The notes below the pieces were generated by a model. The model did not search any database and had not been told where the DNA came from. It saw only the letters and a list, made by a program, of their open reading frames with translations. From positions 48,372-112,371 of IMG/VR virus record IMGVR_UViG_3300007511_000007: DNA of 64,000 bases. One strand, given 5' to 3'. This DNA is from a virus. The position numbers and the translations under genes are program-made. Positions 18,049-63,400 of this stretch are shown here, one piece after another; positions within the stretch are counted from its first letter, which is position 1, and each line of letters starts with the position of its first letter.

Positions 18049-18432
18049 CTACTTCTTCAACAAGGGGACAAGGTGCTTCCTCAACTCGGGCTTCTCTTGC
18101 GCCAACTTCTGAACCGCTTCCCGCAAATCAGAATCCGTGGAAGCGAACATCCCCGAGGGCAATTTGATCCCGACTGCATTTGCGGCCTTGAACACGTTAT
18201 TACGGAGCAATGAAATGTCCCACTTCTTAGCGTACTGGACGATCCCTTGCAACCGACTCAAAGCGTGTTCTGCCCCTGAACTCAAATCGAGTTCCTTGGA
18301 AATCTTGTCAAAGGTGGCATTTAACAATTCTGCCGACTGCTTGTCTTCTTTCTCGATCACTCGATAGGCATCAAAGAACTTCCGCCGCCCCCCAAGTAAC
18401 TCCCACAAAATGTCCATGCCTGAATTTGCCAT
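18049..18432 (-). CDS. Hypothetical protein with the shared C-terminal helix
   Basis: Ends LREAVQKLAQEKPELRKHLVPLLKK. Confidence 0.75.
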   Translation of the reverse strand: MANSGMDILWELLGGRRKFFDAYRVIEKEDKQSAELLNATFDKISKELDLSSGAEHALSRLQGIVQYAKKWDISLLRNNVFKAANAVGIKLPSGMFASTDSDLREAVQKLAQEKPELRKHLVPLLKK

Positions 18433-18444
18433 CGTTATTCTCCC

Positions 18445-19038
18445 CTACACCTTGAGAGGTGCGCCCGTGTCATCGAAGAGACGTTCCAGAACGTAGTCCT
18501 CTCCATCCTTCTGGAAAGACCACAGGTCTTGGGTGGCCTTGTGTACCAAGTCCTCCTCACTGGTCTTATCAAAGAACTGTGAAATGTCCCCGAGGTTGCT
18601 GGTAACAATTCTGAAGTTACTGGCGGTCTTCATTGTGCTCGGGGCAAGCCTGAGATGCTCCGGGTGCATCGTCCTGAATTCCCCGTCATCCCAGCTTACA
18701 AAAACTCGGCCATTGAAATGCGTGGTATCGCCATCTGCGGTACGAACCGCCACAATGGTGCCTAACACATGAGGCTCGGGCACATTGTCATAAGTCAGCA
18801 GGGAACCAACGTTCGAGGTAAAGGACACTCTGGTACCCGCAACAGCATCAAGAGACAATGCATTGGCGGCCCTGGCCTGATCGGTAAGATCTCGCAACGA
18901 AGTTGAATGGCTCCCCTCAAGTTGCCTCCCATCCATGCGAGTTTCCTGCGCCTCAGCCAAATGCTCCGTGAAGGTGTCGCCCCCGGTAGGAACAAAAGAC
19001 CCGGTGATAAATTGATCCCAGTATTCGTCGTGGCTCAT
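18445..19038 (-). CDS. Hypothetical protein with an SH3-like central segment
   Basis: ATG 19038; GTIVAV..VFVSWDDG..HPEHL is SH3/KOW-like; MKTA site. Confidence 0.68.
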   Translation of the reverse strand: MSHDEYWDQFITGSFVPTGGDTFTEHLAEAQETRMDGRQLEGSHSTSLRDLTDQARAANALSLDAVAGTRVSFTSNVGSLLTYDNVPEPHVLGTIVAVRTADGDTTHFNGRVFVSWDDGEFRTMHPEHLRLAPSTMKTASNFRIVTSNLGDISQFFDKTSEEDLVHKATQDLWSFQKDGEDYVLERLFDDTGAPLKV

Positions 19039-19039
19039 G

Positions 19040-19414
19040 TTAATGCCCCCATCCTGCTGCTGTTTGCGACTTCGGTTTGCCATCCCACGGATACGCCGAA
19101 GCGTAACTAGCGATGTTGAGATATGGCTCGTCTCGATACACCTTCGGGAATTTTCGCAGAGCTTTTCCAACGAACTTGCCTTTCACGGGGACGACATAAT
19201 CAGCCCCTCGTACTTCTCTCACGACCTTATTGGCCACTTTGCGGATAGCAATCGATTTGGCTCCGACCTTCACCACCTGATAGTAGTCGATGTTTGTCTG
19301 ATTGTATCCAAAACTGGCGACAAAAATGTCTCCGACCTGAATCATCTTGATAGCTTCCGTGGGAGCATTACTCAGCAACCACCTTCTAGCCACTCTCTGA
19401 AACTGGTTATTCAT
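19040..19414 (-). CDS. Small tagged protein with an SH3-like VGDIF..GYxQTN domain
   Basis: N-terminal QRVARRWL, then IQVGDIFVASFGYNQTNIDYYQVV. Confidence 0.75.
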   Translation of the reverse strand: MNNQFQRVARRWLLSNAPTEAIKMIQVGDIFVASFGYNQTNIDYYQVVKVGAKSIAIRKVANKVVREVRGADYVVPVKGKFVGKALRKFPKVYRDEPYLNIASYASAYPWDGKPKSQTAAGWGH

Positions 19415-20166
19415 TCAGCCCTCTCAGTCAGAGACGCTCGCCAACCCTTCGCAAGCTCCCGTTTACCGCCCACTAAGCTACTAACCATAGACGCAGAAAC
19501 GCCATGAGTACGGATAAATTCTTGTCGGGTACCACAAAAAACATCGTCCGAAACCTCATGCGAAAAACAATACGTCTGGTGATCGTAGTTTGGGTTCCTC
19601 TCCCCGACGTGATTGTGTTTTCCTTTACCGCTTTCACTCATCTTCTCCCGGGTTGCATGGGATCTCTTTCTACCTCTCTGGGCATCACCGATCTTCTTCC
19701 TGGTTTCCTCACTGTGGACTCTCGTAGCAGAAAACTCCCCCACCTTTCTACGCATCTCTGCGCTGTATTCCCGTCTTCTATTCGCTGCCCCGATCTTTTT
19801 CTTGTGGGCTTCTGTGAACTTCCGCCCTTTCAATGCGACACTGATCTTCTCAATCGCTTCCGGGCTAGGTCTGCCCCCATCAGGGGCATAATTCAAATTG
19901 TAGTTTGTTTCGGGCTGCTGCTCACAAATAGTCAAATACTTCTGCTCAACACTGTGCAAGTCTCTCTCGGGCACCTTCTCCAATACCACAAACTCAAAAG
20001 CCTCTTTGCCGTACTTATGCCACGCAGCAGTCAAATGACTATTGTGGTGCTCTCTCCTGCACAACTCATACTGATGTCGGCTCCATCGAACCCTCAGATT
20101 CTTGGTGCTGCCGACATAGTATTTGCCGTTTTTCCTGTTCACAATCTTGTAAATACCACTAGCCAT
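19411..20166 (-). CDS. GIY-YIG homing endonuclease with NUMOD3 repeats
   Basis: SGIYKIVN..KYYVGST..R..H; repeats such as HSEETRKKIG and FTEAHKKKIG. Confidence 0.9.
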   Translation of the reverse strand: MASGIYKIVNRKNGKYYVGSTKNLRVRWSRHQYELCRREHHNSHLTAAWHKYGKEAFEFVVLEKVPERDLHSVEQKYLTICEQQPETNYNLNYAPDGGRPSPEAIEKISVALKGRKFTEAHKKKIGAANRRREYSAEMRRKVGEFSATRVHSEETRKKIGDAQRGRKRSHATREKMSESGKGKHNHVGERNPNYDHQTYCFSHEVSDDVFCGTRQEFIRTHGVSASMVSSLVGGKRELAKGWRASLTERAE

Positions 20167-61621: not shown

Positions 61622-62030
61622 TTGTCATCTCCAGAACTGCCTCTGCCGCTTCCGGAGCCATTCTCTGGATGAGATCGGTCATTTGGCGACAGACGGTACC
61701 AATCAACTGCTTCTGCATCGCTTCCTTCTCTTCAGGAGATGCCGCCACATACTGTTCCAAATACCCTTCTTGCTCCGAAGCCATGATGACAAGTTCCAGA
61801 TACGCCTCACGGCGCAACGCCTCCGTCAGCAGGCCAATCACAATCTGCTCTAACCCATGAGAGGGCAATGATCCTGCCGTCTGGCCATCCTCCATCTCCC
61901 CGAATTCGTGGGTTGAATACACGTTGCCGTCATTGTCTTGTGCAATCCGGACCAGGAGATCGAAACACCGATACTCGGGATGCACGCCTTTTTGCCATTT
62001 GTTTGCGTCTTCCATTTGAAAACTCCTCAT
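61575..62030 (-). CDS. Hypothetical protein
   Basis: Acidic helical ORF converging on the HU gene; likely start ATG ~62015 after GAGGAG. Confidence 0.65.
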   Translation of the reverse strand: MRSFQMEDANKWQKGVHPEYRCFDLLVRIAQDNDGNVYSTHEFGEMEDGQTAGSLPSHGLEQIVIGLLTEALRREAYLELVIMASEQEGYLEQYVAASPEEKEAMQKQLIGTVCRQMTDLIQRMAPEAAEAVLEMTTTQIDPSSATSPLET

Positions 62031-62055
62031 ACTGGTTAGGGATACTGTACCGAGG

Positions 62056-62874
62056 TTACGGCATTGGCGGGGCTACTTGTTGCATTTGAGTCTCCGCTCT
62101 CATCTCTTCATGCTCTGCAGTTTCTTTGAGGATACTGGCGGTGATTTTATCCCTTGTGATGACTCCGTTGAAACCTTCATCTTCATCCAAAACAGGAAGA
62201 AGGGTTGCGTCCAACTTGCTCATTTTCTCCAGAGCCTCTCTTTTCTCCGTCTCGATTGATAACGCCGCGGCCCGAGGTATCCACTGGGGAATCGAATCCA
62301 GAGAAACCCGGTCATCTTCCTTCAGCCATTGTGCGAGAGCCTCGGGATCAAGCTGCTCTGAATCGATCGCTTGTAGCAGGTCTTTAGTTCGAACTAGCCC
62401 GATGAAGGTTCTCTCTTTGGTGCTCACGATGACGTACTTTACCCGTGTGTTCCCGACTAACATCCGCACCCGATTGGAAAGACCTTCTCCTGTGTACTCC
62501 CGTCCGGTCACCAGCATGATCACTTCAACATCGGGAGCAGGCAACTCTACTGGCTCTAAAGCATCAGACTGTGAGACGGCATCAGTGGGATATGCCATTG
62601 ACTCCGGTGCTTCTTCCTTGACGGAAGCTTGCGCCATCTTGTTTACTTCGGTCTCAATCGTCTTTTTGGAGGCTTTGGAGATCGGGGTCTCCATCTTGAA
62701 CTTGCCGATTTCAACTGAGGAAATGCCCCCGGAAACTAATAGCCAGACAACCACGGGGATGCAGGCCACAACCACATCCGGCCAGCGGTATTCGAGATTC
62801 AGGAACTTCCGCAACAAGCCGATGATGAGAAGAATACAAAAGAAGAGCAGGATCATCCATGCGGGGTGAGGCAT
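62056..62874 (-). CDS. Membrane-anchored CBS-domain pair protein
   Basis: Two N-terminal hydrophobic helices; FIGLVRTKDLL and LPVLDEDEGFNGVITRDKI. Confidence 0.78.
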   Translation of the reverse strand: MPHPAWMILLFFCILLIIGLLRKFLNLEYRWPDVVVACIPVVVWLLVSGGISSVEIGKFKMETPISKASKKTIETEVNKMAQASVKEEAPESMAYPTDAVSQSDALEPVELPAPDVEVIMLVTGREYTGEGLSNRVRMLVGNTRVKYVIVSTKERTFIGLVRTKDLLQAIDSEQLDPEALAQWLKEDDRVSLDSIPQWIPRAAALSIETEKREALEKMSKLDATLLPVLDEDEGFNGVITRDKITASILKETAEHEEMRAETQMQQVAPPMP

Positions 62875-62878
62875 TAGA

Positions 62879-63400
62879 CTACCCTTTTCCTCTGAGAATC
62901 GGAACAATGTGCTTCCGCAGTTCCGGTTTTTCATGAGCGAGCCGCATCAAACCACTACGCAACTCATCATCAGCCTTCTTTCCGAAGAATCTCTCTTTCA
63001 GGGATTTCTTGTTTTTGGCTTTCTCCCCTTTTTGGAGGGCATGGTTGGCTCCCTCTAATTTCCAGAGAAGGTCGTAGAATTCTTTGGGGACACTCTTCTT
63101 AGGGGGGAGCCACTTATCGGTCATTTTGTCCCAAGCCTCTTGAGCTTTAGAGGCATCCCCTCCTTTGAGAGCTTTGTCTACCGCATCGGCCATCCCTGAC
63201 AAAGCCTTCTTTTCGGCGTCGCCGCCCTTGAACTCCTTGAACCCATCGGAGAACTGTCTCAGTGATTTGTTGGCCTTGTCATGCTGTTTCTCTGTCTTTG
63301 TGGGTTTGGTTTTCCCTTTTGAAACAGTGTGGTTCTTGGGATCAGCATCGGGGTGTTCCTTGAGGTACTTCTTCCGGGCTTTTTCCGTTGCATGTTCCAT
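62879..63400 (-). CDS. Basic hypothetical protein with the shared C-terminal helix
   Basis: Ends GKKA-DDELRSGLMRLAHEKPELRKHIVPILRGKG. Confidence 0.75.
   Translation of the reverse strand: MEHATEKARKKYLKEHPDADPKNHTVSKGKTKPTKTEKQHDKANKSLRQFSDGFKEFKGGDAEKKALSGMADAVDKALKGGDASKAQEAWDKMTDKWLPPKKSVPKEFYDLLWKLEGANHALQKGEKAKNKKSLKERFFGKKADDELRSGLMRLAHEKPELRKHIVPILRGKG

Follow-up and report, generated by a model that had tools for sequence, protein, structure and literature searches.

A portable peptide module on unrelated proteins of an uncultured huge-phage lineage, with a possible role in addressing them to the phage head

Why would a phage place one short peptide on proteins that otherwise share nothing? 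The question is raised by a 64,000-nucleotide stretch of viral DNA (positions 48,372 to 112,371 of IMG/VR record IMGVR_UViG_3300007511_000007; hereafter, the window), in which three open reading frames (ORFs) carry, at or near their C-terminal ends, a peptide module of 24-26 residues, here called the long tag. To our knowledge, little is known of how giant phages select proteins for packaging or injection, except in T4 and the phiKZ group. We describe here the anatomy, portability, and distribution of the long tag and its exchange with a second, RVAxRYL-type peptide (the short motif), and we weigh the possibility that it addresses its carriers to the assembling head. Coordinates are those of the window unless given as genome coordinates.

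The three ORFs and their peptides lie exactly where the preliminary description of this DNA had placed them, all on the minus strand (Table 1). The three copies of the long tag share 50-63% amino acid identity and 50-58% nucleotide identity in pairwise comparison, and differing codons encode identical residues at 7/14, 12/15, and 9/12 positions in the three pairs. No direct-repeat family was found at the three sites, and RNA structure across the tag-coding regions was unremarkable (z-scores of 0.03 to -1.19). Because DNA identity is low, the codons differ, and neither a repeat nor an RNA structure is present, selection acts on the peptide and not on the DNA. A hidden Markov model (HMM) of the three copies, searched against the six-frame translation of the genome, recovered each of them at an E value of ~1e-18, and the best non-tag match had an E value of 0.29. 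With the tags masked, no pair of carriers showed similarity (best E = 0.42); unmasked, the matches span only the 24- to 31-aa tag, except for three marginal ones of 36-51 aa. The remainder of each carrier is thus unrelated, as had been claimed, and full-length paralogy, the outcome that was to be feared for that claim, does not apply. Carrier 2 matches Pfam family PF22653 (DUF7007; E = 8.6e-13), and carrier 3 gave no family match, its relatives being found through its long tag only.

The window is part of a single viral contig of 112,371 bp, probably a fragment of a much larger genome, because relatives of 132 kb are rated ~25% complete. Outside the window, the HMM detected four more long tags in three consecutive minus-strand genes (genome 30.1-33.6 kb). 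The first encodes a very basic protein of 879 aa with a weak SWIM zinc-finger match and a long tag 14 residues before the stop; the product of the next begins M-D and runs at once into a long tag; that of the third, 116 aa long, begins M-L followed by a long tag and has a second one at its end. Both N-terminal start sites are supported by the nucleotide sequence: the first ATG lies 4 nt past the upstream stop, with the stretch GGGGGTGA spanning that TGA just before it, and the second is preceded by GGAGGTG at 5 nt, directly after the upstream TAG. The contig therefore totals seven long tags in six unrelated proteins, at C-terminal ends, N-terminal ends, or both. The label "C-terminal" fits the three copies in the window and is too narrow overall, since two further copies directly follow the start methionine and the N-terminus is the commonest terminal placement in relatives.

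An ungapped consensus of 191 copies reads L-R-x-x-L-I-R-L-A-H-x-x-P-E-L-R-x-x-L-L-P-L-L-K-x-A, with A8, P12, R15, and P20 invariant. AlphaFold2 was used to model the 127-aa carrier 1 from an alignment with 10 homologues. The model has a five-helix core at residues 3-86 (predicted local distance difference test [pLDDT] score, ~88-96), a linker at residues 87-96 (pLDDT, ~60), and the long tag as two helices at residues 97-113 and 115-126 with a break at a conserved proline. The preliminary description spoke of a 24-aa helix; the conserved peptide stands, and the single helix gives way to a helix-kink-helix. Foldseek searches with this model returned nothing at an E value of ≤0.001. The seven copies on the contig are always basic (net charge, +3 to +6). 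Their helical hydrophobic moments (0.23-0.58) are equaled or exceeded by composition-matched shuffles at fractions of 0.13-0.73; a membrane-targeting amphipathic helix is not supported, because the moments do not rise above those of the shuffles, and the long tag is accordingly not a generic membrane-binding helix of this type.

The sequences that flank the long tag are also biased. Immediately after the tag, a [KR]-x-A tripeptide is present in 97/160 cases (61%; per-position background, 1.6%), and of the internal or C-terminal tags, 67/112 (60%; ~9% expected) have one among the 8 residues upstream of them. The maturation protease may act on these flanks as release sites.

Searches beyond the contig showed the module to be lineage-wide. 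A profile built from the seven contig copies (profile A2) matched 1,812 proteins at an E value of ≤0.001, 83 of them at ≤1e-10, among 1.84 billion cluster representatives. The top 150 representatives hold 112 N-terminal, 126 internal, and 54 C-terminal placements, with 1-4 domain-level copies per protein (up to 8 stretches in the library search). Ten clusters were sampled; all were metagenomic, and none carried an informative name. A pattern scan of IMG/VR yielded 16 loci, distributed over 14 viral contigs (38-536 kb), in which the tag usually stands right after the start methionine in runs of up to 10 adjacent, otherwise different genes; runs of 6-10 occur at loci L008, L010/L016, and L012, and the present genome has three adjacent tagged genes. 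Five relatives selected by the tag carry 7-12 copies each, and two of these are complete genomes of 436 and 536 kb. The large terminase was used to choose 16 relatives independently of the tag; 8 have it (seven relatives have 4-12 copies, and the eighth, a small fragment, has 1), and those without it are mostly small fragments. The search of related phages that had been proposed thus yielded up to 12 copies per genome. G015, a relative of 297 kb that is 67% complete, has no long tag even at an E value of 0.6.

Databases of known sequences gave no name to the module. No Pfam model covers it in 145 tagged proteins or in the window carriers, the only matches, to LSU at E values of 0.00028 and 0.009, being below the gathering score; no PHROGs model matched it in the window carriers; and a profile search of all PDB chains gave an unrelated enzyme as the best match (E = 0.47). 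No full copy was found in 185,579 cellular species genomes, in which three partial matches are attributable to chance. Literature searches with the motif strings returned unrelated peptides only, and no paper mentioning LR745208 was found.

The strongest evidence for portability comes from orthologues of carrier 1. Their ~95-aa core, always ending in ...LPSGMF, occurs in five forms: with the long tag at the C-terminal end (this phage and P0155), at the N-terminal end only (P0157), at both ends (P0014, from G004), without any tag (G001), and with another N-terminal leader, MxKIASPxELxxELRRL...KPSRxKLAxEL...LAxKVA, in place of the tag (P0159-P0165). This leader may be a diverged variant of the long tag or another address peptide. 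The catalogue of fused domains suggested in the preliminary description proved diverse: WGR, RelA_SpoT, pentapeptide repeats, GNAT, DUF7007, CheW, and zinc ribbons were found, and most of the 145 tagged proteins scanned have no Pfam match. Dissimilar masked carriers, varied fused domains, and orthologues tagged at either end bear out the idea of a portable tag and show it to be a linker-tethered interaction module that is able to work at either end of a protein.

The long tag also changes places with the short motif. In the present genome, the pattern [KR]-V-[AS]-x-R-[FYWH] has 9 strict matches, against 1.1 expected from shuffles, and these sites lie at termini, as well as at junctions of a 2,047-aa multi-enzyme ORF. 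Four relatives (G001, G004, G005, and G015) are syntenic with this phage across structural and replication genes, and in two of them the orthologue of the 879-aa protein has RVAARYL (G001) or RVARRY (G005) at the end where this phage has the long tag. Comparison of sequences shows the two peptides to be interchangeable. Counts of long tags and short motifs, with short-motif counts on reversed DNA as controls in brackets, are 10 and 0 (0) in G004, 0 and 9 (0) in G015, 7 and 10 (0) in G000, 7 and 19 (4) in G001, and 8 and 8 (1) in G005; in G004 and G015, the two kinds of tag are distributed in a complementary way. The interchange supports alternative signals for one system without implying that the two peptides are homologous; the likeness of the KLA/RLA core to the short motif, pointed out in the preliminary description, is very weak. 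The earlier proposal of an alternative signal for the same cargo system holds in this respect, and its other half, the loading of cargo into the capsid, is something that we infer.

We propose that the long tag is a self-contained, position-independent protein-protein docking peptide, a basic helix-kink-helix on a flexible linker, which the phage lineage places on many unrelated proteins, at either terminus or at junctions between domains. It would direct its carriers to the scaffolding core or the capsid interior while the head assembles, for packaging with the DNA, and would serve as an alternative to the short motif. The [KR]-x-A flanks would act as processing sites, and the partner would be a head-module protein, with the scaffold-like protein of 455 aa as the best lead. 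Judged from sequence, we give about even chances to the idea that the long tag addresses proteins to the assembling head or procapsid. Targeting to the capsid, on which our confidence is equally balanced, is suggested by gene position and by two links in domain architecture to the scaffold-like protein.

As to position, the block of structural genes, with those for the portal, maturation protease, capsid, and two scaffold-like acidic proteins, contains or adjoins 6 of the 7 long tags. The cluster of three tagged genes is a few kilobases beyond the capsid gene on the same strand, and copies 1 and 2 are in a tightly packed block between the terminase and replication genes, adjoining a beta-helix (tailspike-like) protein. 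As to architecture, the N-terminal ~130 aa are conserved in orthologues of the 455-aa protein, and the tails that come after them are variable and highly charged. Residues ~95-150 of the 455-aa protein (FDPxDIGKE...GEFSQQENREL) occur beside long tags in 15 of the 150 tagged representatives, at E values down to 7e-10, and several small proteins consist of a long tag, this segment, and another long tag. Its residues 195-422 correspond to a separate G001 protein with an N-terminal long tag (36% identity; E = 2e-45), so that one domain is either fused to the N-terminal region of the head-module protein or given a long tag.

Several observations weigh against an address to the head. Carrier 3 is surrounded by non-structural genes, and the tagged genes of larger relatives are scattered, extending beyond structural modules. 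No long tag occurs in the Acidobacteriota jumbo myovirus Tunturi_5, which is the sole relative in culture. Tag-negative G015 also has the capsid, portal, 221-aa, and 191-aa proteins; identity of the capsid protein is 83-89% in tag-positive as well as tag-negative relatives (86% in G015), and no receptor can be singled out because every candidate hub of the head occurs in tag-positive genomes and G015 alike. The tags of the present genome mostly have G for the A of [KR]-x-A, or are followed by the protein end. Finally, long tags frequently stand at the C-terminus or internally, which the targeting sequence of T4 does not.

The main rival, which is compatible with capsid targeting and which we consider possible, with chances well short of even, is that the tags associate with each other: helical hairpins would bundle into a network or condensate, perhaps outside the capsid, for example, in a replication or assembly factory. 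Many proteins consist solely of a tag, a charged linker, and a tag, or have 3-4 tags, and a 24-aa hairpin is unable to fold stably alone. When the 116-aa protein with two tags was modeled by AlphaFold2, pLDDT scores of 86-90 were obtained for both of them, and compact four-helix bundles came out as the best structural matches (residues 1-116; 55-65 aligned residues); because these matches span both ends of the protein, the two tags are modeled as packed together. However, helix packing within one chain of a monomer model is weak evidence, here read indirectly from the aligned ranges, and the Z-scores of the matches are only 4-5.7. Bundling alone also leaves the interchange with the unrelated short motif and the links to the head module unexplained.

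Tag association can be combined with an address to the head in a more elaborate, "Velcro" reading, whose four parts we regard as jointly unlikely. Connectors of the form tag, segment X, tag would be anchored in the scaffolding core via segment X, the segment common to the connectors and the scaffold-like head protein. They would capture single-tag cargo enzymes by four-helix bundles formed between tags. The same core would be fed by two or three address peptides able to replace one another (the 24-aa module, RVAxRYL, and perhaps the MxKIASP leader), and the [KR]-x-A flanks would let the maturation protease free the cargo inside the head.

It is improbable, in our estimate, that the target of the long tag is instead a conserved component of the host (such as membrane, RNA polymerase, or chaperone), at which phage effectors would be localized during infection. 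Many carriers resemble host-takeover enzymes, the tags are without exception net basic, and the peptide is very highly conserved across phage genomes with GC contents of 43% to 62%, a range that implies different hosts. Its unexceptional hydrophobic moment speaks against a membrane, and its invariant A, P, R, and P positions argue for a specific fold or partner; moreover, the close relative with the 86%-identical capsid protein does without the tag, and the architectural links lead to a phage head-module protein.

Trivial similarity (paralogues, a chance-translated DNA repeat or mobile-element end, or import by a homing endonuclease) has a next to negligible probability: copy 2 abuts a GIY-YIG homing endonuclease gene, and the preceding sequence bears a weak resemblance to the beginning of the next ORF (14/33 residues; E = 0.002), but the masked carriers are unrelated, the scrambled synonymous sites and low DNA identity without any repeat family rule out a repeat or mobile element, and the tag is present in 1,812 independent clusters. 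Import by the endonuclease was likewise rejected; this gene did not deliver the tag, because the G005 orthologue of carrier 2 ends in a long tag without it. What lies between the beta-helix gene and the conserved gene after it varies: nothing in G001 and a different tagged ORF in G005.

Addressing to the head can be compared with known systems. The C-terminal helix-turn-helix of P22-type scaffolding proteins, like the C-terminal tail shared by the 80alpha scaffold and SaPI1 CpmB, binds capsid protein, and the P22-type coat-binding unit can be transferred to other proteins, loading them into procapsids. The long tag is similarly a small, basic two-helix unit on a flexible tether, as judged from the AlphaFold2 model and its charge. 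Unlike the P22-type domain, it has no sequence match to any PDB chain and is not confined to a scaffolding protein, and the multi-tag connectors have no counterpart there. Encapsulin cargo-loading peptides are short, terminal, and flexibly linked and address diverse enzymes into an HK97-fold shell; they bind in extended form and belong to cellular operons. Terminal long tags share with them the flexible linker and the diverse enzymes, but are longer, helical, and phage-restricted.

The internal proteins IPI-III and Alt of T4 carry a capsid targeting sequence (CTS), a strictly N-terminal stretch of 10-19 residues that suffices to direct proteins into the prohead core and is removed by the prohead protease (Mullaney and Black 1996, reviewed in PMC5694885 and PMC9026906). 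The long tag, too, is a short shared peptide that is portable among unrelated, variable proteins, and its carriers, like the T4 internal proteins, are encoded in runs of adjacent genes. It differs from the CTS in its length of 24-26 residues, its helix-kink-helix, its occurrence at N-terminal, C-terminal, and internal positions, and its frequent presence in 2-4 copies per protein, and it has no sequence similarity to the CTS. With respect to T4-like cleavage, [KR]-x-A is strongly enriched on both flanks and a maturation protease gene is present, though the copies in this genome mostly lack the flank. Ejection and inner-head proteins of SPN3US and phiKZ, phages that package many proteins, have N-terminal propeptides of 80-130 residues that are specific to paralogue families, with conserved N-terminal regions on diverged paralogues and proven cleavage (PMC5694885, PMC10052503). 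The giant-phage setting and the presence of a head maturation protease are shared; a single unit of 24-26 aa common to unrelated families is not. By analogy, the long tag resembles a capsid-targeting or cargo-loading peptide, which we infer as its function, and is a member of no described family. The traits that set it apart from these systems are position independence, several copies per protein, pure connector proteins, and interchange with an unrelated second motif.

Present in ~1,800 clusters, the long tag would make it possible to predict from sequence which proteins an uncultured lineage of huge phages packages or co-assembles, and it would point out those, many of which are enzyme-like, that are probably delivered into the host. 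If capsid targeting is true, foreign proteins could also be loaded into phage capsids by means of this compact tag, whatever its position. Two unrelated tags that are swapped at the same position on orthologues amount to a natural experiment in the evolution of an address code.

Table 1. Positions of the long tags, their carriers, and other features of the contig
Feature	Window	Genome	Strand	Remarks
Long tag copy 1	18055-18126		minus	LREAVQKLAQEKPELRKHLVPLLK; C-terminal, ends 1 residue before stop
Long tag copy 2	20186-20257		minus	LREALVKVAQKNPETRVFIVPLLR; ends 8 residues before stop
Long tag copy 3	62891-62962		minus	LRSGLMRLAHEKPELRKHIVPILR; ends 3 residues before stop
Carrier 1, 127 aa	18049-18432		minus	Five-helix core ending ...LPSGMF, then linker, then long tag
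Carrier 2, 274 aa	20159-20983		minus	N-terminal DUF7007 domain and KVGD repeats
Carrier 3, 173 aa	62879-63400		minus	Lys-rich
ORF, 124 aa	19040-19414		minus	Starts with short motif (QRVARRW); matches C-terminal half of phrog_37844
GIY-YIG/NUMOD3 homing endonuclease	19411-20202		minus	Free-standing; ATG overlaps carrier 2 stop (ATGGCTAG)
Large terminase subunit	9026-10957		minus	First in transcription order of head module
Portal	5199-8498		minus	Second; intein-like insert; head module continues leftwards out of window
Multi-enzyme ORF, 2,047 aa	2-5152	47380-53523		Third, between portal and scaffold-like genes
Scaffold-like protein, 455 aa		45946-47313 (L056 12946-14313)		Fourth
191-aa protein				Fifth, after 455-aa gene
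Maturation protease				Sixth; carries intein
Hyper-acidic protein, 476 aa		41213-42643 (L056 8213-9643)		Seventh; EF-hand calcium-binding motif
221-aa protein				Eighth, between 476-aa and capsid genes
Capsid protein, 308 aa		39470-40396 (L056 6470-7396)	minus	Ninth
Shadow ORF, 387 aa		39230-40396 together with capsid gene (L056 6230-7393)	plus	Lies over capsid gene
Head-tail connector homologue		20953-23334 (L002 953-1606 and 2564-3334)		Split
Ribonucleotide reductase ORF, 1,129 aa	40238-43627			Insert at residues ~494-830
ORF, 862 aa	54824-57412			150-nt direct repeat at 55802-55951 and 56720-56869

The order of the head module is given in Table 1. Searches of PHROGs, Pfam, and PDB gave no identification of the capsid gene, which was recognized via the annotated Tunturi_5 record. 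The plus-strand shadow ORF over this gene even yields tblastn matches of 44-48% identity in relatives, and choosing by ORF length mis-calls the capsid gene. The hyper-acidic 476-aa protein is a candidate scaffolding protein. Searches of the ESM Atlas with two head-module proteins gave no usable matches. The 2,047-aa ORF has a tRNA-nucleotidyltransferase-like N-terminus and four strict short motifs internally, and its position is that of a "DNA ejection protein" in Tunturi_5. The portal protein comprises residues 1-306 and 835-1099; the middle section of ~528 residues, which gives intein-type (ribonucleotide reductase-like) PHROG matches, is present in the G004 orthologue and absent from those of G001, G005, and G015, and is probably an intein.

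Further inserts and repeats were noted elsewhere on the contig. The homologue of the head-tail connector annotated in Tunturi_5 is split, with an intein splicing domain on the downstream piece. The ribonucleotide reductase ORF contains an insert resembling HNH or homing endonucleases, probably an intein. The two units of the 150-nt direct repeat in the 862-aa ORF are 77% identical and probably represent an internal domain duplication.

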